Positions 8,161 through 64,000 of a DNA stretch of 64,000 bases are shown here, piece after piece. The notes beneath the pieces are model-generated. The model was given only the letters and a program-made list of their open reading frames with translations, was not told where the DNA came from and did no database searches. This stretch comes from Botryllus schlosseri (taxonomy: Eukaryota), in contig CM119372.1 in the NCBI GenBank assembly GCA_051294905.1, forward strand, positions 12,960,001 through 13,024,000, read 5' to 3'. A program made the position numbers and the translations under genes. Numbering within the stretch: position 1 is the stretch's first letter; the number at the start of each line of letters is the position of its first letter.

Positions 8161-8413
8161 TGTTATGTTCGTGCATTTACGTTCGGTGTCGTACAGCTTT
8201 CTTTCTATAGGATGAGTAATTACCGCCAATCATTATTTCCTCGTGTGTCGTGCTTGTATTTATATCCTGTGTTCTGTTGTCTCGTGGTCTTTTCATTTAA
8301 CTGCACTCTGGATCGTGTCGCTGCCGTAAAGTTATACTGCTGATAATATACTGATTTCTTATTGCAACCTCGTCGCATTGAGTTATTGTTCAAACAAGAT
8401 CTAGAACATAACA
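8161..8413 (+). repeat. 5' LTR
   Basis: TGTTATG...CATAACA; direct repeat of 12651-12903. Confidence 0.97.
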
Positions 8414-8415
8414 AT

Positions 8416-8435
8416 TGGTGTCAGAAGTCGGATTC
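8416..8435 (+). promoter_or_regulatory. Primer-binding site, tRNA-Leu(CAA)-like
   Basis: TGGTGTCAGAAGTCGGATTC, 2 nt after the LTR. Complementary to the 3' end of eukaryotic tRNA-Leu(CAA) with one mismatch (from recall of the tRNA sequence). Confidence 0.8.
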
Positions 8436-8463
8436 ATAGTTATTTCTGCGACGAATATAAAGC

Positions 8464-12617: not shown

Positions 12618-12640
12618 ATGTGGGCAACCCTCCAACTTAC

Positions 12641-12650
12641 AGGGGAGGAC
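12641..12650 (+). promoter_or_regulatory. Polypurine tract
   Basis: AGGGGAGGAC directly before the 3' LTR. Confidence 0.85.
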
Positions 12651-12903
12651 TGTTCTGTTCGTGCATTTACGTTCGGTGTCGTACAGCTTTCTTTCTATAG
12701 GATTAGTAATTACCGCCAATCATTATTTCCTCGTGTGTCGTGCTTGTATTTATATCCTGTGTTCTGTTGTCTCGTGGTCTTTTCATTTAACTGCACTCTG
12801 GATCGTGTCGCTGCCGTAAAGTTATACTGCTGATAATATACTGATTTCTTATTGCAACCTCGTCGCATTGAGTTATTGTTCAAACAAGATCTAGAACATA
12901 ACA
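12651..12903 (+). repeat. 3' LTR
   Basis: Direct repeat of 8161-8413. Confidence 0.97.
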
Positions 12904-15900: not shown

Positions 15901-18900
15901 TGAGGCCAATAGTCTGCCAGCGCGGTGATGTTTCCCTCAACTATTGTGAACTGACAATATATATCGAGGGAGTTATCCATGCTAGAAAATCACAACGAAA
16001 AAGTGAGTATATACGTTTTTTTTCATAGGTGGTCATTTTTGTTCCGCGGCATATTCAACTCGTGGATATAATTTGATATACCGGTATCGGTTGAAAATAC
16101 TGCATTCTAGGGTTATTTTTAGCATGACGTCACCAAAATTTAATTTTGACGTCACAGTGGATTCACATTGACAATGGAAGATGTAGGGTAAGTATGGCTC
16201 CTTTGATGAATTATAGGCTTCCGACCCCTGTCATAAACGGACTAAAAATATCTCTAACCAGGACTACATCGTCATGCAGCATTTTTACTGTCGGCAGACA
16301 TCATCACGAGAACATCCATTTCATACCAATGATCTATATCTACGAGCTATAACTGTAGAACCAACGACGATTTCGAGAGTTCTAACCATGCCGAATCGTA
16401 TACGTCGACTATATCGCGTGCAAATCGCCCGTCGGCTAATAACACATGTTTTTGGAGAGTATTTACACAATTATGGCACAATAATACAAAGAAACATATA
16501 TATATTTTTTTAAATGGCATTGTCTTAAAACACTGTTTAAAACATGTTTTAAACAAAGTATTTTAAACATCATTTGTTTTAAATGCAACCCTGCTGCAAT
16601 CCCTTAGTGATTGTTGAACATTATACTGCTGAATTCATTAAAACTTACATGGTAATTAGAACAGAATAGTGACTATCATCAACCGAAACCGTGAACGCCT
16701 TATTTCATATTGTGCCCGAGGATCGGTTGTATTATAGGAACCGTTATAGGAATGTGAATCAATATTCAACTTACCACCCCGTCAATAGCCAGAAACGACA
16801 TTCCCAGGAAAAACGCTGCGGCCCAAACTTGAGGGGCCGGCAGGGTATTAAATGCGTTCGGAAAGACGAGGAACACTAATCCCGGACCTGGTAACAAGAT
16901 ATTGATTTCTCGACCGAGCAAATACGTCTGAACAATTTCAATTAAATAGTATATTCATATTGAAATGAACCCGAATATTTTCGGCTGACACTCGTCAGGG
17001 GTAATCGTCAGCAACTAGTAGAGAATTGGAAAGAACATTGTATATCAACAATCGTATCACAAAATATGACGTCACCAGCATGAAATTTCGAATGAGAGAG
17101 CGTTCAATGTACTATTTTAGGTGATACACGAACTCCTTTTGTTGACAGAGTTTTGGTTGGTGTATTTTGATAAAAGTTGATTCCAAGGCACACAAATGGA
17201 ATTGTGAACGGCCTCGACCTACGATTCGAAATCGGTGGTCTCGATAATTATTCGCACAAATCGGATTATCCAACAGATGTTTGCCGATGGCAGAATTAAT
17301 GGCCTTTGATCGATCAGCATCAATCTTAATTTCAAGTAACATTTGGCCGATCCTTCAATATCTCCTATTTAGTTGAATTTACGAGACTGGACTAAAGACC
17401 AATGCATATTGTGAATATGCATCTATTTTGTGTGGTGAATCTCCCTGATCCGAGCCATTACCTCTACAATGGGGATAGTCGACTCAGCACGGACCTACGG
17501 ATAGATGCAAAATCGGTATTGCTCTGAGAAATAGAATCGTCGCGTATTAGAAAGTCTCGTCGCATTGCGGCTTTCCGATTGCTGGTCACATGGATCATTT
17601 CCGACTTTAAGAGAGATTAAGGGGGTTCCAGTTCCTGACCATATATTAATTTATATTCTTATAATTGGTGCAATAGTATAGCATTCGTTTAGGGCCCGTT
17701 TTGATAAATAATGGGTTCGGGTCGCGAGCTTTAACATTACCATATATCTGTTTACGAAGAGATTTTGCTAGCGGTATCCGGTTGTCCAACCGTGCAGTCA
17801 CGTGCTAGGCATCTATCCGTTGGTTATTTATCTATCTCTATACTCACACTCAACATCGATTAGTTCGATATATCGGCTATACATTCCTAGTTGCAAACTA
17901 TACATTCCTACTAAAAACTTTGACAGAATGAAGATATTCAATGGATAATGCCGACTTCCAGCGCGGTCACCAAAATCTTCACCGGAGCCGCTACATGTCA
18001 TCGACGAGATTTACTCACCTCCTTCAGCGATGTCAGTGACGTTTTTGCCTTCAGTAAACGCCATATGACCAAGAAAAGAAAACACGACGAATCCGAAAAA
18101 TAGTGAACTCAAGCAGCAAGTAAGCACGAAGACGTACGCGCTCCTGATACAGAAACTGGGATTAGAAATAAGCCGTGCAGGCGAAGTGCGAGCCTATACT
18201 TGTAGCAATCGAATGAAAACTTGTTGTAGCTTCCCATTCCGTAAAAACAGCCGTAACATATTCCAAGCGAGTAAATTATCTGAGTACCCCCATCGAGCCA
18301 AACCTGAAGAAATACAGGCGGAACATAAGATATACGTTTCCTCCGTCAAAGAAACAGAGCAAATTGTACCTCCGGTTCGGCTAGTCTAGTGACTTTGGGT
18401 GTGATGTAATAACGGATCCCGTCGCCGGCTCCTTCCAACGTTATCCCACGTACGAACAGAGCAAACATCAATACGTACGGAGCTATCACAGTAACATACG
18501 CGGCCTGCGTGTACGGAATCAAAATATTGAAATGAAAAGGGAGATTCAAGTATAGCGGTTCCTCTACCTTTCCAGATGTTCGTATTCCTTTGTATATGCA
18601 GAGATAACAAGCTAACCAACACAATAGGAAACACCCAATCATTTTCCAGTTAGAAAAACTTCCAACGTCGCTCAATCCCGAAGATCGCTGAAGCACGTAA
18701 TTGCTGCGTAAATATATCGGACATTGTCTGATCTAAATTATGCTGGCTTACATGGTTGAACATGGTAATGCAAACGTACTTTTGGTAAACGCATATTACA
18801 AAACTGAATACCAACCTTTTTAAACCAGTGGCCCCTTCGGCCGAAAGTCCCCCATAAGAAACAGCTTTCTAATTACTAAAAATGTTGAGTAAACGTGGCA

Positions 18901-37915: not shown

Positions 37916-39612
37916 TCACGCAATCATTTTCCTCATGTCGAGATCGGTTTCCTCGGCATCCAACTTCGTTGTGAGCCTTGACATCGTGACGTATTTCCAC
38001 TTCTGTTAAAAATATTGGAGTACGATATCTGTATGTGCATTAAGGCAATACAATGCGTTATATAGATATTTAAACAATCTGAAGGACCACTGAAGATCAA
38101 CGCTAACGTCACTCCTATATGTATAGTGTATACCTAGCGGTGGTCAGTACTGCTAATTATTCGTAGTACTTAATTGGGTTTCTCTACTTGCACTACTCCC
38201 TCAGTCACTCAAATGGTTACGTTTTTATACTACTTCGACTTCTACTTCAACATTTATGTTTTGCTATGTGAAAAGTAGCATTTCGATAGATTCACATCAC
38301 TTCCAAGTGTAGTATTGTCCTTGGTGTCCTCTAAACTGGGCGACGCTGACCCAGCATGATGGTACAAGATTATAATTTCGAAAATTGCTACTATTTTGAC
38401 CCCATAAGTCATTATGCGTTCGTCGTGAATATACATTTGACAAGATAAAATATTATCACCGATGGATTGTCTCACAAAATACAGAAGCATCACTGCATCG
38501 CGACAACTGTATATATTTTCCAACATCGCACCTCTTTGTAGTGTCATTTGTCGGTTTGCGTTAGTCGCTAAGATGTGCTCTGCAATACCCAGCTCCGAAT
38601 AACTGCTAAAAAATGGGACCCCTTGGCCAAATCTACTTTTTCCAACTACTTGAATAGTTCTCAGACCTGCCGTTTTATACTGCTACTAGTTTGTCTTGAA
38701 AATCGCTATTCCTACTTGCAATTGAGTAAAATTTTACGGCATTACTTCTAATTGTACCTAAATACCAACAATTACTACTTTGACCACGTCTCAATGTAAT
38801 TGTTTGCATCACGTCGATTTAGCAGTGTTGTGATGACTCGACTCACGTTTTAATATGACTAGACTTGACTCGGACTTGGCGTGTGAGTAGTCTGAAATGA
38901 CTGGTATTTATGAGGTCAACTTTTGTTGTCAATTTTCAATTCATCAAATATTCTACTTCGCAAAGCCTTCTGAGTCTTCTTAGTCGCATTGTGAAGTGAC
39001 CACCTAATCAATAGGCGTCTCCATTCCATAAACGCTATATGGTCCACAGATCGTATAGTAGCAATTCTTACCTCGCGGAATGTTGCTCCACGTGCTCTAC
39101 AAAACACGCATAAACCCACGACAGAAATACACAGCATTGACGAAAGGTGAAGAGCCCATCCAATAACCGCCCCACCACGGATAAGAATAATTTCCTAATT
39201 TCAGTGGGGTGTATTCCACACAGCATGCAATGAAGATGGCCTAGAAGTATAATCGCGGTGGATCGGTATCGCATCGGCTATTTGCAAGAGGGTGCTTTAT
39301 AACTACCACGCAGAATAATGGTGTGATAAACTGGATACGCAGTATTTCATCAAGACTGACGGAAAATATCCTATCGTGGACTTCACGTTATCCCAAAACT
39401 TGTCGATTCCGTAGATCCATGCCACTGCGACGCGCAGTTTCGGCTATTGGCACCCATAGCAACACAATACCGCTAGCGCCGTAACGATTCACAAGTTCGA
39501 AAATATAGATTCCAAAAATTTCAATCAATATGCCGACTTCAGTTTCATCAATCGGATCATGTCACTCACGTCTGCAAATTGAGGCAAGCTTAGTAGTATC
39601 AGTGATCCACAC
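37916..39612 (-). pseudogene. SLC6 3'-end pseudogene fragment (copy C: part of exon 11 and exons 12-14)
   Basis: High similarity to 15317-15856 and 12955-13041. Exon 12 has lost its acceptor and has +4 and +2 insertions. Exon 13 (39240-39072) has a 2-nt deletion. Exon 14 (38002-37916, KWKYVTMSRL...MIA*) is intact. Confidence 0.88.
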
Positions 39613-43295: not shown

Positions 43296-46200
43296 ATCGT
43301 AACCCTATCAATAGTGAAGCAAAGTCGATATATCCATTAACAATCAACAATCAATTCATTTGAGGCCGTGTCAGCCGCTCTAACTGTAGTACAATCACGT
43401 CCGTCTGATAGATCACAATGGCACAAAAAAGTTTTCTGCCTAGCAAAAAGCATTTTGCATTTAATTTCCTATTTTTAGTGAGTACTTTTATCAGGTGAGA
43501 ATAGTCTTTCAGCCCTTGAAGAATTTATATACTATTTCCCAATGTGCGTGTTTTATACAGTAATATAGTGAATAGTATACAGTAATTTTTGGATCGTTTG
43601 GTATCGAGATAAAATACTGTGCATACAATACAACTAGCCTGAGTGTAGAACTCTAGTTCGTTATGTGCAATCAGTGTCAGTAGTTTGTAGATTCGTGCCA
43701 TCGCGTCCCGGTATTAAATATATTCATACAACACGTAATACGTGTGGATCAGTGAGTAAACTACGCATGTCGATAGTTACATCATAGTGTCTTACCACAG
43801 TGTCCTATATGGTGTGGACACAAGCAAATCTCACTGCGATTGGTCTACGTCACACCTTCCATTTGGCTAAAGTAAATTTGACGGTAATTTTTGAATGGCT
43901 TTCCGATCATTGAATTTGATAAAACGGGTATAAATCGAAAGCTGCCGCTGTACTGATTACGAAAATATAAATTTTATTTTGCTGCTCATGGCCTAGGGAA
44001 GTACCGTAAATCTACATCAAATACACTTCAGTCCGAGTTTATTGCACATTGTACGGTCTTTTGAACGGCATACGGCATATGACCCTGACGGAATACTTGG
44101 CTACTTCAGCATCATCTTTTATTTATTATGCAATTGAAATTATTTTCGTTGCTGACAGCCGTAGGTTGTCACTCATAGTCGGGGGTAGGGTTGCATTTAA
44201 AACAAACATGTTTAAAACAAGGCAGTGGATTGACATTGAAAATATAGGGTAAATATGGCTCCTTTTGACGAAAAGGGCATCCGACCACTCTCATAAACAG
44301 ACCAAAAATATCTTTGACCAGGATTGCATCATTTTTACGGTCCGCGCTCATCATCATAAGAACACTTATTTCGTACCAATGATCTATATCTACATGCTAA
44401 AACTGTTTTACCGACGACGATCTCGAGAGTTCGAGCCACCCCACACCGTATACGTCGGCTATTTTGGGTGCAAATCGTCCGTAGGCTCACAATGCAGTTG
44501 TCGGGAACCTATGGCTCGCGAGCCACATATGACTCTTTTGGGCATAAGATATGGCTCTTTGAGAAATTTTTATTTTTGTGCCAAATTTATCAATATTGCA
44601 ACAACTTGTTATTAAATCTTTACCACGACCAGTATAATTAATTATTCTCGTGGCAGTATGCAAAACTTAAAGACGCATTAACTGTAAAAAGCGTGTAAAA
44701 AGTAGACTCATAGTTTTACTGTTGTCTACATCTGTTGGAAATGTAAATGTTATTTGTCTTAAGATCTAGGCCTATGTAACTCAAGTTTCGCGTACTCATT
44801 ACTCAAATAAGGCAACCAAGCATGTTAATTACGAGTTTTTACAGAGAAAATATAGTGCTATCGACGATTTCGAATTTGCGCTACCATGACGTCACGATTT
44901 TTCAATTGTGACGTAGTTGCTGATTGATATGTATGGCTCTTTGGGAGTAAAAATGAAATATAGGGTCAATATTGCTCTTCGGACGAAAAAGGTTCCCGAC
45001 CCCTGAATACTTAGTTTTTGGACGTATTTAAACAATTATGGTATAATTAGACAACGTTAGTAGTAAGATAAATGTGCGGAATCCCCCCATTCGCGATTTA
45101 TAATAAACAAACAAAGATTATCAATATAATAATTAATGAAAGAATTACCTCATTCTCAATTTTGCAGCAATACTTTTATGGCCCTGTGTGCGGCAATCAA
45201 AAAGGGGGAATAATTAACGATAGAGAGAAAACGAACAAAGAATCTGGATTGACCTTTGTACTCAGACATGAGACTTGAGTCATTCTACTTGTACTTTTCC
45301 ACTCGCCTCCTGATTCTACCTGCCTTTATCCTGGGGTTTGCGAATATGTTGAACGTAATCAGCTTCCAAAATATCGATTGACCTTTTGTACTCTGGCCAG
45401 ACGTGAAACTTATTGATTAGTAATTCTACTTGTACTTTTCCACTCATGATTTATTCTACCTCGCTTGACCTCTGGACAAGGACACGAAACTACAGCTGAC
45501 TTCGGTCGTACGCGACTGGGCTTGGTAATAGTTGCCTGCCGACAAATCGCCCTGACCTATCGTTTTGTGGTCCAATTTCGTGACGGGGCTTTGGGAATAA
45601 TTGCCGTTCAAACCACCCTGGTTTACTTGTCGTTTCGCGATTGACTCGATTTCGTGTACTGTGGGGCATAGGAATAATTGCCGGTCGTGACGTCAATAAA
45701 GTTTTCTCCTGATCGGGGAGATCCTGGTGCGTGTTTTAGGTGTCTATAGTTCGGCTGTGCATAGTGACGCTTGTAGTCTGTTCCATACTGTCGTACTTGC
45801 TCTTGCTTTGTTGTCGACTTAAATAGTAAGGAGAAATGATCTGTTCTGGTTATAAGTATGTGTGTCATTTTGAGTCATATCGAGAACCAGAAAGAATGTC
45901 GTGTATTAGAAATAGGTATTAGGCGCCCCCGACATAGATTAACTTAAATAAAGTAACATTTCGAATATAATAAGTAATTAAAGAAATAGCTCATTCTCAA
46001 TTTGACTCGCATCAACGTGTTCATTTCCGATATTACGTACCTACTAATTGGTGCAAGCAACAACTACTGTTCCACACCTTTCCCGCTTTCTAGCGTCTTA
46101 GGACAGACAGCCCCAACCAAACAATGTATTTATGATGGGTTCTTTTACTGCTTCACGTCTGGTCAAGCGTAATCATGCCGGTGTCTGTAAATGATATACA

Positions 46201-48434
46201 ATTTACCGCGGCATATTATTTTTGTATGCTGTACATGATGTACAACTTGAATCGATCAGTTGGCGAACTAATGCTTTACCCGTATGTACGATATATATCG
46301 ATCGCAAGCTCACCACGCACTTGTCGTTCGAGAGCGACTAATTTCGCTATAGACAATCAGTTGTGTTCGCGTGTACCGTAACATATCCTCAACACTTGTT
46401 ATACCAACACCTCCAAGCATATTTACAATATCATACTAAGGATATATTGCTTCGGCAGCCACGCACTGTCGTTCGAATTCGACTAATTTCGCTGCAGACA
46501 ATCAGTTGTGCTCACGTGTGCCGTAACATATCCTCAACACATGTTATGCCAACAACGCCGAGCATATTTGCAGCATCATACTACGGATATATTGAATCGG
46601 CGAAGTGTTACCGTCAGAGAATTGCTGCGTCACACCTTCGAGCCTCGCATTTCCCGTTCGAACTCGGTAACTGCGAGTACGATGTCAGATTCAATTGTAC
46701 AGTGACGAATCGGGGTAGCTCGCTTCATCGGGGATCAGTGGACTGACCTTATTTGGCTGAAACGCGCTCGGTGGTGCAATATTGGGAATGAATTGTGACA
46801 GATCATACGTGATTCGATCTATAGCCTGCTTTCGGTGAGTTGTAAAGATGAGTGGGAGATTTCGAAATTCGAATCCACTGCGACTATAGGGATGCAAAAT
46901 CAAAGTCCAAAAAATCCGACTAGTACGTAAAGTCCCGGTATTTCCATGTACTAGGCTGGTAAAATGTAACATAAATCCAACTCTCAAAGACACTTGGCCG
47001 CATCCAGTCCGGGTTTAACCAAAAGTGATGAAATCTGCGCCGGGTCCGGAAACGAATCGTGACCAGCCCCGTCCAGACAAAATAGTTCTGCTGTAGGGGG
47101 AGTGTCGTTGTACATTAATTTGCGTACAGCGAGACTTTGTATCGACTCATTGGCGGACTTCTGTTTGTCTGTACAGGTGTTATTAGTGTAATTAGATTTA
47201 CCACCACAAGGAGCATATTGGTAAAATCACACAACGATAACAACTTTACCCGCCAACAACTGTCATGACTTGTCGTTGGTACGCTTCCAATTTCGATGTG
47301 GTGCGATATACGCGAATCAGCTGTGACCAATCGAGCGTGACACAATCGATGTCAGTATAGAGTATGACTGGAGTGACGACTCGATTGTTCTCCCATTGTT
47401 AGCCGGCAGAATGGTCACGGTCAGATGGATGCACCCAAAACAAGATCGCTCAGTGCTTGTTTCAATGGCGTTCAAGGCGATTCGTCGTGTATTTCTTGAA
47501 ATTTCGTCGGAATTAGTTAGATAGTTCAACATTTAGGTAGCGGTGGCGAGTCGTTATGACTAGTGAATAATACTGTGTAGCCTATGTTACATTTCTCACG
47601 AGATTGATGTGATATTGTGGCTTCGATCCTTTGTAGAGTTTGCTACGTATATGAATATAATGACGGAAGATATAGAATATCTGGTACGTGTGTATTGGCT
47701 ATTGTGAGATGAATTCATGGAAAGAAAGACTGAAGAATACTACAAAGTGAACAAGTGGAAAGATCTTGAACTATACCGATATGCAATTCACAATATCGTT
47801 TATTGAAAATATGTCCTATATTAACTGCAGAAACTCGAGTATGAATATAACAAATAATATTGCAACTGTCTTGTAGTCTTATATAATGCCTGTCCGATAA
47901 CCGCAGAAACTTGAGTATGACTAGCAGGAACGTAACTGCTGCACCCCAAACCCCCCAATTGCGCAGGGTCCGAGCTCGAAGGGGGCCCAAAATTATTTCG
48001 CGAATTAGCATAAATTATGGAGTATTTTTCAAAAAATTTTCGCGCTGCGTGCGATTTCAAGTTGCCAACTTTCTTAGGTATTTGGTAGCCTACTCTTCCC
48101 CAAGACAAAATACGCAGGATTTATCGAAATGGACATATCGGCGAGACATTTAAAGTTTTAGAACATGTAAGATGCGACTCCAAGAAGTGTGCCAGAACGA
48201 TCGGCAGCGAGAAAACCTCGGCCAAAAAGGACTGCCCGCTTACGCTGGCCGAAAACTTCGTTATATATGCAAAATGCATATAGGTTTAATTGTCCATAGG
48301 CGCCTAAATGACTGGCGCCGAATGTTCCTGTCTTGACAATCTGAACCTCAGAAGACAAATATTATTCCGCAGGGAAAAATTGTATGCCCGTAAAGAAATA
48401 CCAATTCGAAATCGTGTGCGTCGTTAGTCTAGTA

Positions 48435-48831
48435 CAGTGGTTCCCAACCTTTTTCGACCCATCGCCCCCTTTTCAAGGTCAACACCAATCATCGCCCCCC
48501 AAAATTTTGTGCACCGATAATTGGGCATACAGACTGTAAACACCGGCGGGTTGACTAAAAAAAAAAAAAAAAAGGTCATCTTTCTCCGCTCAGAGCTGCA
48601 AATAACGTTTTTTCTCTCCGAATTGCTAGGTGGATGACTAAAAAAAAAAAAAAAAAAAAGGTCAGCCGTTTTGACGCGTCATCGCCCCCCTATCGCCCCC
48701 TTCGCTATTTTCGCCCCCCGTCGCCCCCTTTGTCCATTTTCGCCCCCCTATCGCCCCCTTCGTCATTTTCGCCCCCCTAGATCGCCAAATCGCCCCCTGG
48801 GGGGCGATATCGCCCACGTTGGGAACCACTG
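48435..48831. mobile_element. hAT (Charlie/Buster-like) MITE
   Basis: TIR CAGTGGTTCCCAAC, 8-bp TSD GTCTAGTA, many TCGCCCCC repeats. Confidence 0.88.
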
Positions 48832-49520
48832 GTCTAGTACATTTGGGCGATTCTGTATTTTTTGATGTAACAGACAGGAGATCACGAAATGACATCATGA
48901 AACGAAGTCATACCAACGGGGCCGCCCGCCCGACTATGTTTAATTATTATTTACGGGCCCTACAGTTTCCAAGCCACCTCATTCAGCTCTACCGGTAAAT
49001 CTGACAACGTGAACAGAGAGAACAAGAAATTGATACCGTAGCAATATAGGCTTATGTGCAATTCCCAATATTATTGACCGATTTTATCATGAATTATCGA
49101 ATATTTTCGCGCTTCGCGTTGACTCACCAAACTGTGGCCCTTATTTCGTGACAAAAGCGAACAACGTGATGGGGGAGGGCGGTTTATCACCCTATGGGGG
49201 GTCCATGACCAACGTTTTTTTTTGGGGGGGGGGCTGACGAAGTGCTGTTACGGCCCTGATGACTAGAACAAGAGCCTTGTGTAATGTTAATGTTCTGCTT
49301 GAGCTCGACTCACAATAGCCAGAGCTTACTCCTTGAAAGTGTGCAAAATCGCACTTGAAGGGAACTCGTTGTCATTGCCAAGAACACAGGAAGACGTCTG
49401 CCGGTCGACATTAGTAGTAAGCCAATGCACCACGTCAAGGTTTCGACCAACGCATTGGTTTCCTTTTTTAGGTAGAGAACCTCAATGTGGATAGGCAGCA
49501 TTTGCCACAGAGAGAAAAAA

Positions 49521-50575
49521 CTACCATACTAAACGAGCATATTGTTCATTTTTTTTCAAGCCATCTCGCAAACTTTTGGAAAATTTGGAGGACTTTTTTA
49601 GCTTCTCATGCAATGCAAACTTTGCAAAATTGTGAGACAAGATGTTATTCAAGTGTCTCATTGCCTTGTCCATGACATCCTCAACCTCATTTAGGTCTGA
49701 GCCAGATTGAAGTGACACAGTATGAATTAATTTGTTATAGAATGGATCACAGTGAATTGCGTCAAGTACCCTGAAAAAATTGATCTTTTTCAGGGGTTTT
49801 GCCATTTCTTTACTGTGGATAACATAAAAGCGGAGAACCATGCAATGAAACTGTTCAGACGGGCTCTTCAATCCACCGACTTTCTTCTGCATCACTTTAA
49901 TGAGGTTTCCCGATGGCGCTGCAGATGTTAGGCATGTGGCAATTGCTTCGTTAGCTTGCTTAGAAATGGCTCCCAAAAGCAATCCACCAATATATTCAAG
50001 TATGTCTAAAAACATGTCAAAGTTTTTCCATGGAAAGGCAAAGTAGCAAAGGCTATTTACTTACCAGATTCCTTGCTGATGACTCCTCCAATCTCTGCGA
50101 TTGGATCCTGTTCTTTACCGCACACGAGAGAATCAAACATCTTCAAAAGTAATACTGAAGCTGGTAATTGCGGCAAACCCAGCAACTTGTTAGCTTGGTG
50201 ACAGATATTAGAATAATGTTGATAAAATCCGTCAACACCAAGTTTGCAATATTCAGAATGGAGTTGTTTCACCAATGCAACAGCTTTGGTCACGTCTAGT
50301 TCCTCGAATGATGGGGCGCATTCAAAGTATTTTTTGCTATTTACACAAGCCCTCTTCAAAACAGCAATTACAGCATCCTCAGATATATCCCAAGTACTGG
50401 TGGGAACTTTATGATTTTTGTAATGTTTTTTCAGAGCTTTCACAGTCGGAAAGGATGCTTCGCATTCCTCACAAATCACACCTTTCCAGTTATCGAGTCC
50501 TTCGAAACATTCTTCAATTTCCATTTCAGTTAGTCCCTCCCAGTCATCCCAAAGTGATGCAGCTGAATCAGTCAT
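49521..50575 (-). CDS. Two-exon transposon-borne protein (331 aa): C2H2 zinc finger plus P-element-transposase C-terminal-like region
   Basis: Exons 50575-50065 and 50005-49521 joined by a 59-bp GTAAGT...TTTTAG intron give one open frame. Motifs: CEECEASFPTVKALKKHYKNH, LEYIGG, LI......GGLKSPS, KSLRDGLK. Confidence 0.8.
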
Positions 50576-52880
50576 GATACCGATTTTTATCCGTGACGAA
50601 ATATGATCTAAATCTGGCGAAAAATATAACAGAGGCTATACGGTATTATTCACTGGTCATAACGACTCGCCACCGCTACCTAAATGTTGAACTGTCTAAC
50701 TAATACCGACGCAACTTCAAGAAATAGACGAAGAATCGCCTTGAACGCCATTGAAACAAGCACTGAGCTATCCTGTTTTGGGTGCATCCATCTGACCGTG
50801 ACCATTCTGCCGGCTAACAATGGGAGAACAATCGAGTCGTCACTCCAGTCATACTCTATAATGTCAGTCATCAATCCGCCTGTTTGGAAAAACTCGCGTT
50901 TTCGGGTTGACAGCAACACAATGCGATCCATTTGATGTCACCATCGACCCTCCTATTTTAATAGGTTTACCATACGGCCTCATTCAAGGGAGCATATGTC
51001 CTCCTTTTCCCAGATATGTCACCCCTTCGCCCAAATATACTCTCTTTCTGTCAATTTGTCCTCCTTGTTAACTTAACATATCCAAAAAACACCACGAGTA
51101 ACGCAAAATGTGAGCCTAGATTACAAAAGTCGGGTATGTAGCCAAATCGAAATAATGACGCTATGATGGCATTGTGCAGGCTATTACGTGGATACGGGGG
51201 CCTGTGTGAAAATGTGAATAGTAAAAGCGCCCCAAACTACCGTTACATGAAAAGGATCGAGCGCACTCGACCATGTCAGGGTATACCCACCTTAGTACAG
51301 CGAAATGATCCCATGTCGTAGCTAGAATAGCCTGGGTGGTGGTACATCATTCTCACAAGATGCACTTTGGAATGCGTGTGAAATCGACATCGCCCGTTAC
51401 TCGACTGAAGCAAGTCGCCACTGCAATCCCTCTTTGTGTATACACAACGTACTAGGTACTGCAGATCCAGACGAAACTACGCATTCTAGCGAGGTTATCG
51501 AGATAGCTGGAGTGATTTACAACACATGCTAAATTTACTTCAAATGGAAGGACAAAATATATAGCTTTTGAAGTACTCAAGTAGAAGTAGTTTTAAAGAA
51601 ATGTCGGTATCGTGAAATCGCTTTCTATCCTAATTATAAAGAGTAGGCCCCCATAAAACTGTCGAGCCAAAATACAGTTTCGAAGCGATCCGGTAATTTG
51701 TAAATCTTATTTATGGGTTGCACGGTGTGTTAATTGATTAGAGAGAAGCAGACACGGCGGTGCCTGTATAACGAGGCTGTTCTCAAATCCACATTGTCTT
51801 CGTTATTATCGGGGAGATATGGCTTTGCAGTGACATTGAGGTAGTTAAAATATATTGGTTAAACACGATTTATTCCTCATATATGGGGATCAACGGGTGA
51901 ATAATGTATCGATTCAGCAATTCGGCCCGCCAAGTACTTAATTTTCTTATATCCGGCCCGCCGACCGAAGGAGTTGCCCGCCCCCTTGTATAACACATAT
52001 GTAAATCGTACAATAGCGACAGCTAACGGTTGTTAATCATCCATAAATATACAGCTAACCGGTAATACAGCCCTCAAGGATAAACTAGGAATATCTGTGT
52101 GAGTCGCCTCGATTGACCCATGAGGCAAGTTTAGACACGAAAGTATTTTGAGGTGTGATATAATCCCAGTAATTGTACTGTATTTTTCCACGCACACGTA
52201 CCACAATCGAAAACGGGGTTCGTCCGTCTGATTCCCAGCGTTTGCATCGAAGTAAAGTATCGGGTATAAGTGACCATGGATCTACGCCAAGTCTGTCCAC
52301 CACTTTTGAGTAGATATTTGGAAAGACCGGCTCCTGATCACCTCCATACAAGGCCTAATAGTTCTGCGTACAGCGAAACTTTGTAGCGACCTATGTGCGG
52401 GCTGTGCATGTGTTGTTAGTGCAATCGTGTTTATCCCCACAGGAACGTAATCATTTGAGGATGAATAAAATCTTACCCACAACGATACCAACTTTAAAGC
52501 CCTCAACGACTCCAACGGTATGTATTTATGTAGATTTCATATTTTTATGAAAAAGCTAATCGACCACAAGATACTGTTACGTACCATCTCTTTCGGTAGG
52601 GTTTGTTAGTATTGTAAAATGATGATCGGGAGCTACGGTCTTTTACACTAGGTCTAAAAGGGTAGGGGTATTCGTTAGTGATACACCCGTCTGACGTTGG
52701 GGTATTCGACAAAATCACTCTGTTTTTACTACGGAAACCATGATCACACTTACGGGCTCTCATCACTTCTCGTACGAATGCTTGAATTTCGGTGTGATGT
52801 ACTCAACACAGCTGTGATCACTCGAGTGTGACGCGATCGAAGTCGGTCCTATCAGCTGTCTGAGGAAACTCGTATACTCA

Positions 52881-52883
<3 letters not shown>

Positions 52884-52911
<28 letters not shown>
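52884..52911 (+). repeat. (AG)n microsatellite, mirrored as (CT)n at ~57605-57632
   Basis: Direct reading; same length in both arms. Confidence 0.9.
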
Positions 52912-55900
52912 TCTTTATTTTCATCCAACCAAAATACATAACACACGGCAGTGATGGTGGTACAGAAAATATGCTTGCACAGTATTCGGTACTAGATAGG
53001 AATGATCGATAAGACCGTGAAGGTCATCTAGTCTGATCACACCAGCATCAAACGGGTACACTTGACTCTAAACAGTCTGGCTGTAAAGGTTGACGGCAAT
53101 GCGATATATTTGATGTCCCCATCGATTCTTATACTAAAGGGGTTGGCGTACGTCCTCCTTCTCCAGGAAAATATCCTCGCATAAATGTACTCCTTTTTGT
53201 GAATTTATCCTCCGTTTTAGCTTAAAATATCCAAAAAGACCGTGAATAACGCGAAATAGGGATCTACGAAAGGCGGGTAGGGTCTATCTTGCTGTTTTCG
53301 CATAATTCTGTTATTCAAATGTAGGATTTTGGTGTAGGTCTGATTTATAACTTTGTAAAAGTGAGGTAAACTCATTGCAAAACTACTTTCTGCTTTTAAA
53401 GTCAAACGTGCAAAGAGTAAGTAATTTCACCCGAAACGGTTGAGGAGTAAGTTACAACGACTTGGGTATATAGCACAAGTGCCGAGTACTCGAATCAGTA
53501 GCGTCTTTTAACACCATTACTCAATCCAAGTCCACAACATACCTAAAAACGGGGTATTGTTTTGTGTATTTCAGTGAAGCAAATTCAATTTAAATCTCAA
53601 ACCACTTTATCCTGTGCCCGACCTCATTAAAAATCGATCAAAACCTGATCACCACCTGCGTAATCAATCCGCTGTGTGTAAAATGGTATACCATGTTGGT
53701 GTCGATCGTATATTAATTTTGCGTGCGATTTGCGTCGATCTGCTGTCGAACAGATATACTTTTGCCTACCCTTGAAGTATACAGTATTACCGCGTTGTCT
53801 ATATTACGGCTCTGTGGTTAGACAATACAGATTAGAGACGCCCCGGACTGATCAATATAGTCGGATACTCCCAATCTGCTCAGTCGTGGTTCTTGACCCT
53901 CCAAGACCTTTGTTAGCATCAGTCTATCTCACTGTTTGTAGTGCCAATTTCAAACGTCGTAATAGTGATCACTCGCTCATGTGTAATATAGAAATTGACG
54001 CCTGGACTATTTGCACGAGCTCATGGTTTATGGTAAACTTACTAAAGCGGAAAGTCACTACCAAGTTGAACATTGACTGATCGTTCTCTTGTTAGCGTCG
54101 ATATTCGTTCGTACGTTCTTTCATGCCTTAGAATTTTTGTTATCATCGAGTGTGGTCATAAATAGACAGGGGGACAAATTTGATGCGTTCAACGCAATAC
54201 GCGTTTGCCACATCTCAGTCCGGACCGTAACCGATCGTTTACCGCACCTTCTATACGATAAGCGTCGCTTTTTACTCATAGGTAAGCCGATGATCTGTGA
54301 AAACACAGGCGCCAACGTGTCATTTCGTTATTCCCTCCACGTCACATGACCGCCTATATGTAGGCTTCTGGGGTGCCCATCAACACAAGTGTTGAACGTG
54401 ATCCATAAGGACCCCACTGCGTGCTACGTCTAAATAAATGTGTTTACCCGAGTTTACACCTGGTGTGGAGCAGTGAAGTGGGTGCAGAAAGTGAATTAGA
54501 CAACACAAACCAGTTGACTACATCGATTAATATACGGGGGTTGATAAATTTTGTCAAGTGACTTTTGAATGGATGTTATTTTTGCCAAATAAACCCCCAC
54601 TCTGTCTGTAGTTTCAAATAGTAACGTAATTATTGGTGTTTCGTTGGGTTAAACGCACTTTGAACGCTGCTGCTTGGTCGGTGGTATGCACAGTGCACAG
54701 CGTACATCTAGTTGAAATTTTACACTCGTCTGATAAAACGCGACAACGGCAAAGCAATAAAACCAACCGGTGCTAAAATAAGTCATCCGGTAAAATTACT
54801 AATAAGCTATGCCCCGAGTTTCCGGGTCCCCGCCATACCCCGTAACTATGTGTTTGGAGTGGTGGACGCGCGTTATCGGGTGTACCTAAAGCCTGTTTGA
54901 ACTGCGAATTGGGGTAAATCCAGGCTGGTACGCAAAGTCCTGTTATTCCCACATATTGTGAGGAAAAAATCTAGTAAAAATCTGACTCGCAAAGATACGT
55001 GGCCGTATCCAGTCCGATTTCACTCAAAATCGGGGGTCTGGAACCGATTCGTGACCACCTCCGTCCAGGCAAAATGGTTCTGCTGTCAATACACGATATG
55101 CGGGGTTTCGTTGCATATTCATTTGCGTGTACAGTGAAACTTTGTATCGAACCACTGGCGGAATTCTGTTTGATTTGTCTGTACATGTGTTGTTATTGCA
55201 GTAGGGTTTAGCACCACAAGAAGTATAATGGCAAAATCTTATCCATCTCACAACGATAACAACTTTAACTGTCAGCAAACCTAACGGTCATCACTCGTTC
55301 GAATGCTTGTAATTTCGATGGGGTGTGATGTACACAAACCATCTGTGATCAATCGAGTGTGACACAAACGGTGTCAGTCGTCAATCTCCTGTTTGACTAA
55401 ACTCGCATATTCGAGCGGGATGACAGCAATGCGATACAGCTGATGTTCACATCGATCTATATTTATAGGGTTACCAAAGTCCTCCTCCTTCTCCTAGATA
55501 TGTACAACCTTCGCCCAAATGTCTTCCTTTTTTGTAAATTTTTCCTTATTTTCAGCTTAAAATAACAAAAAACACCACGAATTACGCGAAATGTAGGTCT
55601 GGTCGATTTCGGTGAGTGACCTTTCATTTAGTTAACTCGCACAACACAAGTAATTGACGGGTATTTCGGTAGTCGAGTCAGAAGAAATGACATTGTTTTC
55701 TAGTCAATCTAATGAAATTAGCGGTATAAATATAAAAATACGTCTTCCCCTATCGTAACTTGCAACCTGTGAAAAAACGCGTACCGCAAAATATCCTCAG
55801 CACCCCCAACAAAACATACTTGCGACAAATATCATACTATGGACGTATTGACTCGGCGGAGTGCTACCGTGAGAGAAATGCTGTTTGACCCCCTCGACCT

Positions 55901-56218
55901 AGCCTTGAATTTACCGTTGAAAAATTCCACCAGAAGAAGCTGTGATCGTGTGTCGCAATCAATGTAAGCCACGCTCCATCAATCTGTTGTTTTGACAAAA
56001 CTTGTACGTATACGCCAGAGATGAGCATTGATGTTACACTTTCTGTTATACATTCTTCATTACCACCGCAAACTAGAAGGTCAATCACGACGACGGGCAA
56101 CTACTCCCAATTGGCGGAATACTGTTTGATTCATCTGTATAATCAGGTTTAGCACCACAAGAAGTATCTTAGTAGTTTATGATTGAACACAATCTTATCC
56201 ATCAAACAACAAACAAAT

Positions 56219-57604
56219 CAGATCATCGGCTTACCTATGAGTAAAAAGCGACGCTTATCGTATAGAAGGTGCGGTAAACGATCGGTTACGGTCCGGACTG
56301 AGATGTGGCAAACGCGTATTGCGTTGAACGCATCAAATTTGTCCCCCTGTCTATTTATGACCACACTCGATGATAACAAAAATTCTAAGGCATGAAAGAA
56401 CGTACGAACGAATATCGACGCTAACAAGAAAACGATCAGTCAATGTTCAACTTGGTAGTGACTTTCCGCTTTAGTAAGTTTACAATAAACCATGAGCTCG
56501 TGCAAATAGTCCAGGCGTCAATTTCTATATTACACATGAGCGAGTGATCACTATTACGACGTTTGAAATTGGCACTACAAACAGTGAGATAGACTGATGC
56601 TAACAAAGGTCTTGGAGGGTCAAGAACCACGACTGAGCAGATTGGGAGTATCCGACTATATTGATCAGTCCGGGGCGTCTCTAATCTGTATTGTCTAACC
56701 ACAGAGCCGTAATATAGACAACGCGGTAATACTGTATACTTCAAGGGTAGGCAAAAGTATATCTGTTCGACAGCAGATCGACGCAAATCGCACGCAAAAT
56801 TAATATACGATCGACACCAACATGGTATACCATTTTACACACAGCGGATTGATTACGCAGGTGGTGATCAGGTTTTGATCGATTTTTAATGAGGTCGGGC
56901 ACAGGATAAAGTGGTTTGAGATTTAAATTGAATTTGCTTCACTGAAATACACAAAACAATACCCCGTTTTTAGGTATGTTGTGGACTTGGATTGAGTAAT
57001 GGTGTTAAAAGACGCTACTGATTCGAGTACTCGGTACTTGTGCTATATACCCAAGTCGTTGTAACTTACTCCTCAACCGTTTCGGGTGAAATTACTTACT
57101 CTTTGCACGTTTGACTTTAAAAGCAGAAAGTAGTTTTGCAATGAGTTTACCTCACTTTTACAAAGTTATAAATCAGACCTACACCAAAATCCTACATTTG
57201 AATAACAGAATTATGCGAAAACAGCAAGATAGACCCTACCCGCCTTTCGTAGATCCCTATTTCGCGTTATTCACGGTCTTTTTGGATATTTTAAGCTAAA
57301 ACGGAGGATAAATTCACAAAAAGGAGTACATTTATGCGAGGATATTTTCCTGGAGAAGGAGGACGTACGCCAACCCCTTTAGTATAAGAATCGATTGGGA
57401 CATCAAATATATCGCATTGCCGTCAACCTTTACAGCCAGACTGTTTAGAGTCAAGTGTACCCGTTTGATGCTGGTGTGATCAGACTAGATGACCTTCACG
57501 GTCTTATCGATCATTCCTATCTAGTACCGAATACTGTGCAAGCATATTTTCTGTACCACCATCACTGCCGTGTGTTATGTATTTTGGTTGGATGAAAATA
57601 AAGA

Positions 57605-57635
<31 letters not shown>

Positions 57636-60600
57636 TGAGTATACGAGTTTCCTCAGACAGCTGATAGGACCGACTTCGATCGCGTCACACTCGAGTGATC
57701 ACAGCTGTGTTGAGTACATCACACCGAAATTCAAGCATTCGTACGAGAAGTGATGAGAGCCCGTAAGTGTGATCATGGTTTCCGTAGTAAAAACAGAGTG
57801 ATTTTGTCGAATACCCCAACGTCAGACGGGTGTATCACTAACGAATACCCCTACCCTTTTAGACCTAGTGTAAAAGACCGTAGCTCCCGATCATCATTTT
57901 ACAATACTAACAAACCCTACCGAAAGAGATGGTACGTAACAGTATCTTGTGGTCGATTAGCTTTTTCATAAAAATATGAAATCTACATAAATACATACCG
58001 TTGGAGTCGTTGAGGGCTTTAAAGTTGGTATCGTTGTGGGTAAGATTTTATTCATCCTCAAATGATTACGTTCCTGTGGGGATAAACACGATTGCACTAA
58101 CAACACATGCACAGCCCGCACATAGGTCGCTACAAAGTTTCGCTGTACGCAGAACTATTAGGCCTTGTATGGAGGTGATCAGGAGCCGGTCTTTCCAAAT
58201 ATCTACTCAAAAGTGGTGGACAGACTTGGCGTAGATCCATGGTCACTTATACCCGATACTTTACTTCGATGCAAACGCTGGGAATCAGACGGACGAACCC
58301 CGTTTTCGATTGTGGTACGTGTGCGTGGAAAAATACAGTACAATTACTGGGATTATATCACACCTCAAAATACTTTCGTGTCTAAACTTGCCTCATGGGT
58401 CAATCGAGGCGACTCACACAGATATTCCTAGTTTATCCTTGAGGGCTGTATTACCGGTTAGCTGTATATTTATGGATGATTAACAACCGTTAGCTGTCGC
58501 TATTGTACGATTTACATATGTGTTATACAAGGGGGCGGGCAACTCCTTCGGTCGGCGGGCCGGATATAAGAAAATTAAGTACTTGGCGGGCCGAATTGCT
58601 GAATCGATACATTATTCACCCGTTGATCCCCATATATGAGGAATAAATCGTGTTTAACCAATATATTTTAACTACCTCAATGTCACTGCAAAGCCATATC
58701 TCCCCGATAATAACGAAGACAATGTGGATTTGAGAACAGCCTCGTTATACAGGCACCGCCGTGTCTGCTTCTCTCTAATCAATTAACACACCGTGCAACC
58801 CATAAATAAGATTTACAAATTACCGGATCGCTTCGAAACTGTATTTTGGCTCGACAGTTTTATGGGGGCCTACTCTTTATAATTAGGATAGAAAGCGATT
58901 TCACGATACCGACATTTCTTTAAAACTACTTCTACTTGAGTACTTCAAAAGCTATATATTTTGTCCTTCCATTTGAAGTAAATTTAGCATGTGTTGTAAA
59001 TCACTCCAGCTATCTCGATAACCTCGCTAGAATGCGTAGTTTCGTCTGGATCTGCAGTACCTAGTACGTTGTGTATACACAAAGAGGGATTGCAGTGGCG
59101 ACTTGCTTCAGTCGAGTAACGGGCGATGTCGATTTCACACGCATTCCAAAGTGCATCTTGTGAGAATGATGTACCACCACCCAGGCTATTCTAGCTACGA
59201 CATGGGATCATTTCGCTGTACTAAGGTGGGTATACCCTGACATGGTCGAGTGCGCTCGATCCTTTTCATGTAACGGTAGTTTGGGGCGCTTTTACTATTC
59301 ACATTTTCACACAGGCCCCCGTATCCACGTAATAGCCTGCACAATGCCATCATAGCGTCATTATTTCGATTTGGCTACATACCCGACTTTTGTAATCTAG
59401 GCTCACATTTTGCGTTACTCGTGGTGTTTTTTGGATATGTTAAGTTAACAAGGAGGACAAATTGACAGAAAGAGAGTATATTTGGGCGAAGGGGTGACAT
59501 ATCTGGGAAAAGGAGGACATATGCTCCCTTGAATGAGGCCGTATGGTAAACCTATTAAAATAGGAGGGTCGATGGTGACATCAAATGGATCGCATTGTGT
59601 TGCTGTCAACCCGAAAACGCGAGTTTTTCCAAACAGGCGGATTGATGACTGACATCGATTGTGTCACGCTCGATTGGTCACAGCTGATTCGCGTATATCG
59701 CACCACATCGAAATTGGAAGCGTACCAACGACAAGTCATGACAGTTGTTGGCGGGTAAAGTTGTTATCGTTGTGTGATTTTACCAATATGCTCCTTGTGG
59801 TGGTAAATCTAATTACACTAATAACACCTGTACAGACAAACAGAAGTCCGCCAATGAGTCGATACAAAGTCTCGCTGTACGCAAATTAATGTACAACGAC
59901 ACTCCCCCTACAGCAGAACTATTTTGTCTGGACGGGGCTGGTCACGATTCGTTTCCGGACCCGGCGCAGATTTCATCACTTTTGGTTAAACCCGGACTGG
60001 ATGCGGCCAAGTGTCTTTGAGAGTTGGATTTATGTTACATTTTACCAGCCTAGTACATGGAAATACCGGGACTTTACGTACTAGTCGGATTTTTTGGACT
60101 TTGATTTTGCATCCCTATAGTCGCAGTGGATTCGAATTTCGAAATCTCCCACTCATCTTTACAACTCACCGAAAGCAGGCTATAGATCGAATCACGTATG
60201 ATCTGTCACAATTCATTCCCAATATTGCACCACCGAGCGCGTTTCAGCCAAATAAGGTCAGTCCACTGATCCCCGATGAAGCGAGCTACCCCGATTCGTC
60301 ACTGTACAATTGAATCTGACATCGTACTCGCAGTTACCGAGTTCGAACGGGAAATGCGAGGCTCGAAGGTGTGACGCAGCAATTCTCTGACGGTAACACT
60401 TCGCCGATTCAATATATCCGTAGTATGATGCTGCAAATATGCTCGGCGTTGTTGGCATAACATGTGTTGAGGATATGTTACGGCACACGTGAGCACAACT
60501 GATTGTCTGCAGCGAAATTAGTCGAATTCGAACGACAGTGCGTGGCTGCCGAAGCAATATATCCTTAGTATGATATTGTAAATATGCTTGGAGGTGTTGG

Positions 60601-61945
60601 TATAACAAGTGTTGAGGATATGTTACGGTACACGCGAACACAACTGATTGTCTATAGCGAAATTAGTCGCTCTCGAACGACAAGTGCGTGGTGAGCTTGC
60701 GATCGATATATATCGTACATACGGGTAAAGCATTAGTTCGCCAACTGATCGATTCAAGTTGTACATCATGTACAGCATACAAAAATAATATGCCGCGGTA
60801 AATTGTATATCATTTACAGACACCGGCATGATTACGCTTGACCAGACGTGAAGCAGTAAAAGAACCCATCATAAATACATTGTTTGGTTGGGGCTGTCTG
60901 TCCTAAGACGCTAGAAAGCGGGAAAGGTGTGGAACAGTAGTTGTTGCTTTCACCAATTAGTAGGTACGTAATATCGGAAATGAACACGTTGATGCGAGTC
61001 AAATTGAGAATGAGCTATTTCTTTAATTACTTATTATATTCGAAATGTTACTTTATTTAAGTTAATCTATGTCGGGGGCGCCTAATACCTATTTCTAATA
61101 CACGACATTCTTTCTGGTTCTCGATATGACTCAAAATGACACACATACTTATAACCAGAACAGATCATTTCTCCTTACTATTTAAGTCGACAACAAAGCA
61201 AGAGCAAGTACGACAGTATGGAACAGACTACAAGCGTCACTATGCACAGCCGAACTATAGACACCTAAAACACGCACCAGGATCTCCCCGATCAGGAGAA
61301 AACTTTATTGACGTCACGACCGGCAATTATTCCTATGCCCCACAGTACACGAAATCGAGTCAATCGCGAAACGACAAGTAAACCAGGGTGGTTTGAACGG
61401 CAATTATTCCCAAAGCCCCGTCACGAAATTGGACCACAAAACGATAGGTCAGGGCGATTTGTCGGCAGGCAACTATTACCAAGCCCAGTCGCGTACGACC
61501 GAAGTCAGCTGTAGTTTCGTGTCCTTGTCCAGAGGTCAAGCGAGGTAGAATAAATCATGAGTGGAAAAGTACAAGTAGAATTACTAATCAATAAGTTTCA
61601 CGTCTGGCCAGAGTACAAAAGGTCAATCGATATTTTGGAAGCTGATTACGTTCAACATATTCGCAAACCCCAGGATAAAGGCAGGTAGAATCAGGAGGCG
61701 AGTGGAAAAGTACAAGTAGAATGACTCAAGTCTCATGTCTGAGTACAAAGGTCAATCCAGATTCTTTGTTCGTTTTCTCTCTATCGTTAATTATTCCCCC
61801 TTTTTGATTGCCGCACACAGGGCCATAAAAGTATTGCTGCAAAATTGAGAATGAGGTAATTCTTTCATTAATTATTATATTGATAATCTTTGTTTGTTTA
61901 TTATAAATCGCGAATGGGGGGATTCTGCACATTTATCTTACTACT
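56219..61945 (-). repeat. Right inverted arm (5,727 bp, uninterrupted)
   Basis: Reverse complement of the left arm; only about 6 substitutions noticed by eye. Confidence 0.95.
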
Positions 61946-63482
61946 AACGTTTAAAAAAACACATATTTTTAAAGGCATTTGTTTTAAACAATGTGTTTTA
62001 AATAAACATGTGTTAAACAAAATGTTTTAAAACACCGTTTGTTTTAAATGCAACTCTAGCCGGGGGACAAAAGTCGCCGTTTACCCGCCCATTTTCCAAT
62101 TGTACTTGTGCTTGCATACGTGTCACTACGTCTCATCATAGTCAGATGAAAAGCTTTTATATACCCTACGTATAATTCGATGATATTTGAGCGAATAACA
62201 ATAATAAATATAACTAAACTTTCATTAATTCTACAATTTTCCAAATAGCTCTGAGATCCAAATCAAAATGGTCCTGTGGCCAACCAGTGGGTCAACTCAT
62301 GGCCCACTGTTTGAGAACCCCTGGCCTATAGCAAATGGCAAAGACATATTTCTTTCAAAGGACACCGAACAATCACAATTAAGTTATTTGAATACAACAG
62401 GACTTCGTAAACTTCGCTTTGCAGAAAAGTCAATAGAACCACTTATAAATATCTAGTAACAAAAAAGCGTCATGAAATTACATTTAAGTTGTCATAATCG
62501 AATTTAGGGTGAATTTTAGTTATTGAAAGTTCACCGATCCGCAAGATTTTTTTTTAGTTTTACCGGTCCACGAGGTCAAAAAGGTTGAGAACCACTGGTC
62601 TACATCACACTTTCCATTTGGCCAAAGGCAATTTTACGGTGATATTTAACCGTCTTGACGCGCGCGAAAATTGATGCAACAATGCAGGCCGGGAGCAGGT
62701 GAGGAGCAGCGCAAACCGCAAGCGTATTGGCCATTGTTGCGTAATCGATCGAGCATTCATACTCTCACCATAGTGTCCTACAATAATGATGTAGACCAGA
62801 GGTCTCAAACACGTGGTAAAACGGGTATCAATCGACAGCTGACTCTGCGCTGATTACGAAAATATAAATTTTATCCCGTTCGTGGCCCTGGAACCCCCAC
62901 AATCAGCCTCGAATTTTTCATTGTTATGGAGATTGGTATTGGGACGCAACAATGCTGTCTGGCGAAACGATAGAGTAGCTCAAGAGCAAAAGAGCGGCTG
63001 TGCAGCGAGCGTGAGATTATAGAATGTAAACATACCACTGTGATTCTATTAGAATTTTTGGCCGAAATCGGGGATCGGGTGAATCATGGAAATATACTCG
63101 GGTGTCATTACGTTTTGTGCTTTGGAAATTACATCGGCATATTCGTGAACCTCTTGCCAGACTATTTCTTGGTGATGTATTCAACGACAAATGCATGTAA
63201 ACGACGGTTTTCGGGTGTATTTCCGGGTATAATGACGAAAGAACAATTTTAAGAAGACGAATGGATACCTACTACGCAGCCGTTTGACTGAATATTTTGC
63301 AGAGAAATCGCCCGAAATGTGTCGATGATAACGCTCAGCAGACCATGTCTATCGACAATCCTTGGGGTATAAATATATTTCGAAGAGTGCGAGAATGGTT
63401 TGACACCGGCGGCAGCTACAAAGAATCATCATTTTCCCGAATATATGATCACGACGAATAGTAGAACACTTTTTTAAAAGAT

Positions 63483-64000
63483 TTAGGCTCCGGACTCTAC
63501 ATATATCTCATTAAAATCGAATTGAAATCGGACATTTTCAAAATTTCGGTAATCCGGACACAATTATGGCCCCAGATCGACCCTTGGGACGTCAACTTGA
63601 ATAATAACTTTGGTATTGATGGAATCAGCGAGACTAGTAGAATCCATTTCAAAAAGAATTAGGCTTCGGACTTTACATATATCTCATTAGAATCGAATTG
63701 AAATCGGACATTTTCAAAATTTTGATAATCCCGACACAATTATGGCCCCAGTTGGACCCTTGGGACGTCGACTTGAATAATAATTTTGGTATTGATGGAA
63801 TCGGCTAGACTAGTAAAATCCATTTCAAAAATAATTAGGCTTCGGACTCTACATATATCTCATTAGAATCGAATTGAAATCGGACATTTTCGAAATTTTG
63901 ATAATCCGGACACAATTATGGCCCCAGATCGACCCTTGGGACGTCGACTTGAATAATAATTTTGGTATTGATGGAATCGGCTAGACTAGTAGAATCCATT
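63483..64000. repeat. 176-bp tandem repeat (satellite-like), about 3 copies, running off the window
   Basis: AGGCTYCGGACT recurs at 63485, 63661 and 63837; units are highly similar. Confidence 0.92.

Follow-up and report, generated by a model that had tools for sequence, protein, structure and literature searches.

Vertebrate Mavericks, or Polintons, most commonly end in (AGT)2//(ACT)2 and are accompanied by 6-bp duplications (PMC8097293; this and the other papers cited here are represented by excerpts of their texts). In that vertebrate survey the motif is interpreted as aiding protein-primed 'jumping-back' initiation, terminal inverted repeats (TIRs) measure 46-1,447 bp, intact elements measure 12.7-24.6 kb, and Maverick particles have never been seen. 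TIRs of 100-1,500 bp are given for nematode Polintons (10.1101/2023.08.22.554363), and a butterfly polinton set includes TIRs of ~2 kb that carry capsid and protease genes (10.1101/2025.02.07.637071). Polinton copying is known solely as a model, protein-primed and with a racket-shaped single-strand intermediate, the latter being the standing replication model (PMC4196379). Panhandles have been invoked for the restoring of homology in protein-primed genomes (PMC11886824). Here we describe an element at 45059-61945 of a 64,000-nucleotide stretch of Botryllus schlosseri DNA (contig CM119372.1; the whole stretch is called the window), which is a real mobile element, nearly all of it made up of a pair of 5.7-kb arms that mirror each other.

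The element likely behaves as a non-autonomous Polinton derivative. Our preferred reading, to which we give a probability of about 0.6, is that of a multi-copy, gene-less palindrome with Polinton-type ends, which depends on a helper's polymerase and integrase and whose arms are re-copied in a folded-back single strand.

Geometry and ends of the palindrome

Comparison of the window with itself gave two long inverted matches, 45053-47356 against 61951-59648 and 50861-54297 against 59655-56219. A base-by-base comparison of the arms gave a length of 5,727 bp each, a spacer of 1,921 bp and six substitutions at left-arm positions 45078, 46054, 53120, 53481, 54032 and 54086 (6/5,727), all exactly as the original prediction had it; AGTAGT begins at 45059 and ACTACT finishes at 61945, again as claimed. 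No arm indels were found except for a passenger transposon in the left arm. The palindrome had been put at about 85% of the element, which holds for the 13,375-bp body (85.6%) but not for the 16,887-bp span that includes the passenger (67.8%). Similarly, the description 'gene-less 17-kb' is true of the 13.4-kb body, in which no gene is recognisable, and not of the 16.9-kb span, because the passenger within the left arm carries a conserved gene. The features are listed below; X1, X6 and X8 (DNA-type) and X23 (RNA) denote four public sequencing runs that were aligned to 44000-56260, and MITE denotes a miniature inverted-repeat transposable element.

44186-45058, no strand: left part of the host MITE, with further MITE pieces nested in it; 8-bp flank repeat at 44178-44185; X1 loose ends at 44186
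45053-45058, no strand: left target copy AACGTT, palindromic, read from the sequence
45059-45064, plus: left end motif (AGT)2, read from the letters, motif as in PMC8097293; one X1 contig aligns from 45059
45059-47355, plus: left arm, outer part, 2 substitutions against the right arm
46313-46601, no strand: 145-bp unit, two copies 86% alike; mirror at 60403-60691
47356-50860, minus: passenger DNA transposon, P-superfamily-like, with nested MITEs; left arm only; 3,505 bp
49524-50575, minus: passenger gene, predicted to be spliced, with a C2H2 finger exon followed by a P-transposase-C-like exon
50861-54297, plus: left arm, inner part, 4 substitutions against the right arm
51711-51984, minus: fragment of a host MITE family; relative at 4172-4398, mirror copy at 58532-58805; X8 loose ends at 51981 and 51984
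54298-56218, no strand: unique spacer, 1,921 bp, containing a ~70% module paralogue
56219-61945, minus: right arm, 5,727 bp, unbroken, from the self-comparison
61940-61945, plus: right end motif (ACT)2, from the self-comparison
61946-61951, no strand: right target copy AACGTT, read from the sequence
61946-62058, no strand: right part of the host MITE; followed at 62059-62066 by the 8-bp flank repeat, 7/8 matching

Identity is even along the 5.7-kb arms, and diverged patches between conversion tracts were not found within them. At all six differences the left arm has G or C and the right arm A or T (p = 0.03, post hoc). The right arm has the letter of the family at 53481 and that of two internal paralogues at 53120; the left arm, which is also the host of the passenger, may carry most of the six changes. 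The terminal 402 bases folded no better than shuffles (z = 1.32). Diverged direct repeats, 76-81% alike, lie close to the end (45104-45162/45945-46003 and 45241-45304/45370-45445) and are possible protein-binding sites.

Target duplication and insertion site

A perfect AACGTT repeat was found at both ends of the element, in agreement with the 6-bp target-site duplication originally proposed, but its length is ambiguous at this locus. Since AACGTT is its own reverse complement, moving the ends outwards by 0, 1, 2 or 3 bases gives a duplication of 6, 4, 2 or 0 bp and the same empty site. One X1 contig consists of 173 unrelated letters followed by an alignment that starts at exactly 45059, without the T at 45058; this favours the AGT start and hence the 6-bp duplication. 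It is a single contig among those listed, out of more than 136,000.

The element was also said to lie within a host MITE whose own duplication is preserved 17.9 kb apart. The split MITE was found, both flanks being continuations of one MITE that extends over 44186-62058 (17,873 bp), with an 8-bp flank repeat that matches at 7/8 bases. At the insertion point, the other copies of this MITE in the window carry the site once, and the insertion is clean. An empty MITE allele was not found among the rows listed, beyond which there were a further 683 joints and 5,300 loose ends. As to the claim of recent integration, the perfect duplication is in keeping with it, but arm identity dates the insertion only if there has been no chromosomal conversion between the arms.

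Coding content and interior of the body

To describe the coding content of the body, all stop-to-stop frames of at least 45 codons in the spacer and right arm were taken as open reading frames (ORFs). None of the 75 ORFs (at least 45 aa) reached the Pfam cut-off; five had matches at E-values (E) of 0.012-0.088, all below it. The longest frames with 0, 1 and 2 stops were of 134, 183 and 219 codons, lengths that were equalled in 19.5%, 13.5% and 8.5% of 200 shuffles, respectively. For the two best broken frames, the only ones searched (with X at stops), no homologues were found among proteins of near length. The Polinton proteins pPolB, integrase, ATPase, protease and major and minor capsid were not recognised, either by Pfam in the open frames of the body or by homology in the two broken ones; as these defining genes are absent, the body is not an autonomous Polinton. 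There was no Rfam match up to E 1 across 44000-62500. In X23, median RNA depth over bins free of host repeats was 0.24 in the outer arm, 0.05 in the inner arm and 0 in the spacer, with ~6% of this single run read, one library being insufficient to prove silence.

The interior consists instead of repeats. There are three to four internal modules, ~70% alike; the paralogue at 54916-55594 corresponds to 46912-47356 plus 50862-51111 and partly to 52760-53257 and 56112-56218. Near the arm-spacer junction at 56218 the module homology fades, yet weakly continues. An inverted relative of the 145-bp unit (70-77%) is present in the spacer at 55777-55918. The 3' part of the module resembles a host MITE family located at 14.3, 29.1 and 42.4 kb, and the interior therefore looks like old duplicated host repeats. 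The interior is probably old filler of host MITE pieces and repeated modules, with no recognisable decayed Polinton genes. Very high depth and loose ends at 52930-53087 and 45321-45373 mark short host repeats embedded in both arms.

A variable multi-copy family

The stretch was wholly or partly present in 20 of the 24 listed runs, which came from 11 studies. All 30 bins of 44000-56260 were covered in each of X1, X6 and X8. Median summed depth, which is not equivalent to copy number, was 19.7k over the outer arm, 6.9k over the inner arm and 3.7k over the spacer in X1, and 18.8k, 5.2k and 3.8k, respectively, in X6; for comparison, an identical flank contig in X1 had a depth of 25.5 and an identical arm contig in X6 a depth of 2,117. 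The prediction that other copies exist was thus borne out by high, variant-rich depth across the arms and spacer in X1, X6 and X8, and by the flank of one other insertion. The family is multi-copy and variable, spacer included, and among its joints are internal deletions, 37-689 bp in size.

Over its outer ~3 kb (45636-47271 and 50953-51770) the arm had ~3 times the depth of the inner arm (52180-54224) in X1 and X6, and ~7 times in X8, which suggests that some family members have only the outer arm in common. In X8, X12 and X15, which bear three other organism labels, 28-34% of the words of the stretch were present.

The arms were copied from one another

Variants were examined in the best-supported 40 of 1,161 rows, of which 29 fall in the arms. 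At 20 of these 29 arm sites, in X1 as well as in X6, a letter other than that of the window accounted for 90% or more of the depth. The family-rare letter of the window is common to both arms at 19 of the 20 sites, one of the 19 being inside a host repeat. In addition, a fragment of a host MITE family occupies mirror positions of the two arms (51711-51984 and 58532-58805). The shared family-rare alleles and the mirrored fragment show that the arms were copied from one another. The alleles may mark a subfamily rather than a single copy, because the runs may be of other individuals and contigs drop rare variants; in either case equalisation came after divergence. The arms were made identical after the lineage had gained its own alleles and host-repeat fragments.

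Comparison with known systems

The element resembles autonomous Mavericks and Polintons in its ends, in the 6-bp reading of its duplication and in its 13.4-kb body, which lies within the 12.7-24.6 kb range, and its termini are those expected from the original assignment to Polinton/Maverick (PMC8097293). It differs from autonomous Polintons in having no pPolB, integrase, ATPase, protease or capsid genes and in being 86% palindrome. Its 5,727-bp arms are ~4 times the vertebrate TIR maximum of 1,447 bp (PMC8097293) and likewise exceed the nematode range (10.1101/2023.08.22.554363). Like the butterfly polB-less polintons, it has Polinton ends without full autonomy and carries transposon cargo; unlike them, it does not keep other Polinton genes that can be recognised, and its arms are nearly 3 times longer than the ~2-kb TIRs of the butterfly set (10.1101/2025.02.07.637071). 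With Galileo/Foldback it shares non-coding two-arm copies in which internal sequence is drawn into long, near-identical arms, although Galileo belongs to the P superfamily, makes 7-bp duplications and has TIRs of ~0.6-0.9 kb, whereas the ends of the present element are of Polinton type (PMC3573991). Two other assignments, to P/Galileo (7 bp; PMC3573991) and to IS3EU/GingerRoot (TA..TA, 6 bp; PMC10045372), were tried and rejected, as no symmetric boundary reading fits.

Non-autonomous Polintons are already known, and the literature searched yielded no arms as long as these, ~4 times the vertebrate maximum. The suffix in the name Polinton-1N1_DR denotes a non-autonomous element. That name appears in PMC9341505. 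No such palindrome appears in the excerpts of PMC6431247, PMC3014272, 10.1101/2023.08.22.554363, 10.1101/2024.01.15.575659, PMC11296320, PMC3185507 and PMC5499653, and gene-free multi-kilobase palindromic Polinton derivatives were found in none of the titles and opening lines of abstracts listed from the open literature searched, which leaves Repbase, supplements and most subscription papers outside; Repbase entries or supplementary TIR tables may already include such elements.

Viral contigs and metagenomes were scanned with the end sequence. The one viral-contig match was inside a phage-like gene cluster and was rejected as chance; in metagenomes there were 0 matches with 25 letters and 1 with 19 letters, also rejected, as similarity did not continue past the seed.

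Proposed mechanism and alternative explanations

Since its ends match those of Polintons and Mavericks, the element likely rides on Polinton enzymes. The protein-primed polymerase of a helper would start at the (AGT)2 ends, and the displaced strand would then fold into a panhandle with a 5.7-kb stem and a 1.9-kb loop. Template switching or repair within the stem could lengthen and equalise the arms, after which the helper integrase would insert the double-stranded product with a 6-bp duplication. In the last step a P-like transposon entered the left arm; it is confined to that arm and so arrived after the final equalisation.

Several points weigh against this reading. The body contains no remnant of a Polinton gene, so that the assignment is made from the 6-bp motif and the duplication alone, and at this locus the duplication reads equally well as 6, 4, 2 or 0 bp. 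Support for the AGT start from another site is one contig, the flank letters of which are unread. No helper was seen, the end-sequence scans having given chance matches only, and none of the contigs listed spans an arm-spacer junction under a 31-base rule; X8 record 23 has 28 bases on the arm side. The presence of the passenger in one arm means that equalisation is not obligatory, or that none has taken place since. Even in phage and adenovirus, panhandles have yet to be demonstrated directly (PMC11886824). Finally, Galileo, a cut-and-paste element, extends its TIRs with internal sequence, for which repair by non-allelic recombination has been proposed (PMC3573991).

The last of these points leads to the main rival, arm-to-arm conversion on the chromosome, in which a Polinton integrase inserts the element but the arms are built and kept alike by break repair and gene conversion, with no panhandle. 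On sex chromosomes the arms of long palindromes are known to evolve in concert, and the G/C-left, A/T-right bias of the six differences could reflect biased conversion. Within a copy, Galileo TIRs are 98-100% identical (PMC3573991). Against this stand the identity, which is even throughout the 5.7 kb and uninterrupted by diverged patches between tracts, and the perfect target duplication; neither is decisive, and we regard conversion as an unlikely but serious explanation. A second rival discards the Polinton ends altogether. Were the ends one base further out, the element would be a cut-and-paste foldback with TAG...CTA ends and a 4-bp duplication, which fits AcademX, whose ends are TAG..CTA, and suits the locus as well as the 6-bp reading. 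AcademX duplications are of 3 or 4 bp (PMC10045372). This is improbable, because in the X1 contig from another site the alignment starts at 45059, without the outer T at 45058, and because the (AGT)2 motif and the 6-bp repeat would both have to be coincidence.

An assembly or sequencing fold-back artefact, or false equalisation of the arms by consensus polishing, would agree with the missing bridge across the arm-spacer junction, with the absence of an empty allele among the listed rows and with the lack of long reads in the data. A fold-back read would mirror one flank, yet the symmetry goes no further than the duplication, and on either side of the element lies one half of a single host MITE, which makes an artefact unlikely. 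Moreover, the arms are told apart by six bases and by the 3.5-kb passenger, which is flanked by a duplication of its own, and the joint lacking the passenger occurs in X1 and X6. We consider an artefact very improbable indeed, while polishing may have affected the exact mismatch count somewhat.

The preferred panhandle reading can be extended. In copy-back defective viral genomes and gutless adenovirus genomes, an inverted duplicate of one end region encloses a unique middle and a helper is needed. The element is like them in its inverted end regions, unique middle and want of viral genes, and unlike them in being integrated in the germ line, a genomic family and full of host repeats. It might thus be a copy-back satellite of an animal polintovirus, that is, a gene-free 13-kb hairpin born by template switching, padded with host junk up to a length that can be packaged, carried in helper particles and re-integrated in the germ line as a large family. 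We hold this to be doubtful: packaging, a constraint already raised in the original prediction, is suggested by a coincidence of size, and internal deletions (37-689 bp) occur in the family. If it were true, the arms, in equalising themselves, would give the first record in a genome of the proposed Polinton panhandle intermediate, and the satellite could dampen its helper in the manner of defective-interfering genomes.

Near-identical arms are a possible footprint of Polinton-type self-copying. A family that retains only the ends, with arms that resemble each other much more closely than the copy resembles its family, allows the replication model to be tested on genomes alone; the model predicts that the arms are reset at each new insertion and not during residence in the chromosome. 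Such palindromes also host other transposons as passengers, are likely substrates of rearrangement and escape gene-based searches for Polintons.

The passenger transposon

The passenger has TIRs of ~260 bp, 92% alike, and is flanked by a 7-bp duplication, ATGTCAG, at 47349-47355 and 50861-50867. The passenger-free joint is 47348>50861, and joints of the passenger without its nested MITEs (47916>49259 and 48429>48835) were found in public-run contigs. In the passenger's only gene a predicted 59-nt GT-AG intron (50064-50006) joins two frames, a prediction that has no read support. The C2H2 finger frame matched Pfam at E 3e-5, under the cut-off. For this zinc-finger exon no relative was found among longer proteins, and look-alikes in the Atlas were weak, below recognition level. 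The second frame had 21 relatives at E up to 0.001. Tnp_P_element_C was matched by 7 of the 13 relatives scanned, two of them above the cut-off, and a catalytic domain was not found in these 13 of the 21. A 7-bp duplication and TIRs, as in the P superfamily, are present, and transposase likeness is limited to the C-terminal region of the relatives. The longer relatives of the second frame, at 277-331 aa, show no match to the finger exon. RNA depth in X23 was ~15-16 over the passenger exon bins, and X6 contained high-depth contigs identical to the passenger, suggesting that the passenger family is active and expressed.

Other features in the window

Three related exons of SLC6 (sodium:neurotransmitter symporter) genes lie on the minus strand at 6255-6451, 15304-15936 and 39058-39611; the 15-kb exon has a Pfam SNF match and the 39-kb copy has frame breaks. 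To see whether the element lies in an intron, peptides were compared across the window; neither 39.6-45 kb nor 62-64 kb yielded another SLC6-like exon. A retrotransposon of the long terminal repeat (LTR) type at 8161-12903 has LTRs of 253 bp that are 99% alike and gag-pol frames with frameshifts, and from its motifs is presumably Gypsy-like. A small element at 1601-3618 is bounded by inverted ends of 262 bp that are 98% alike, and at 63456-64000, where the window ends, lies a 176-bp tandem array.

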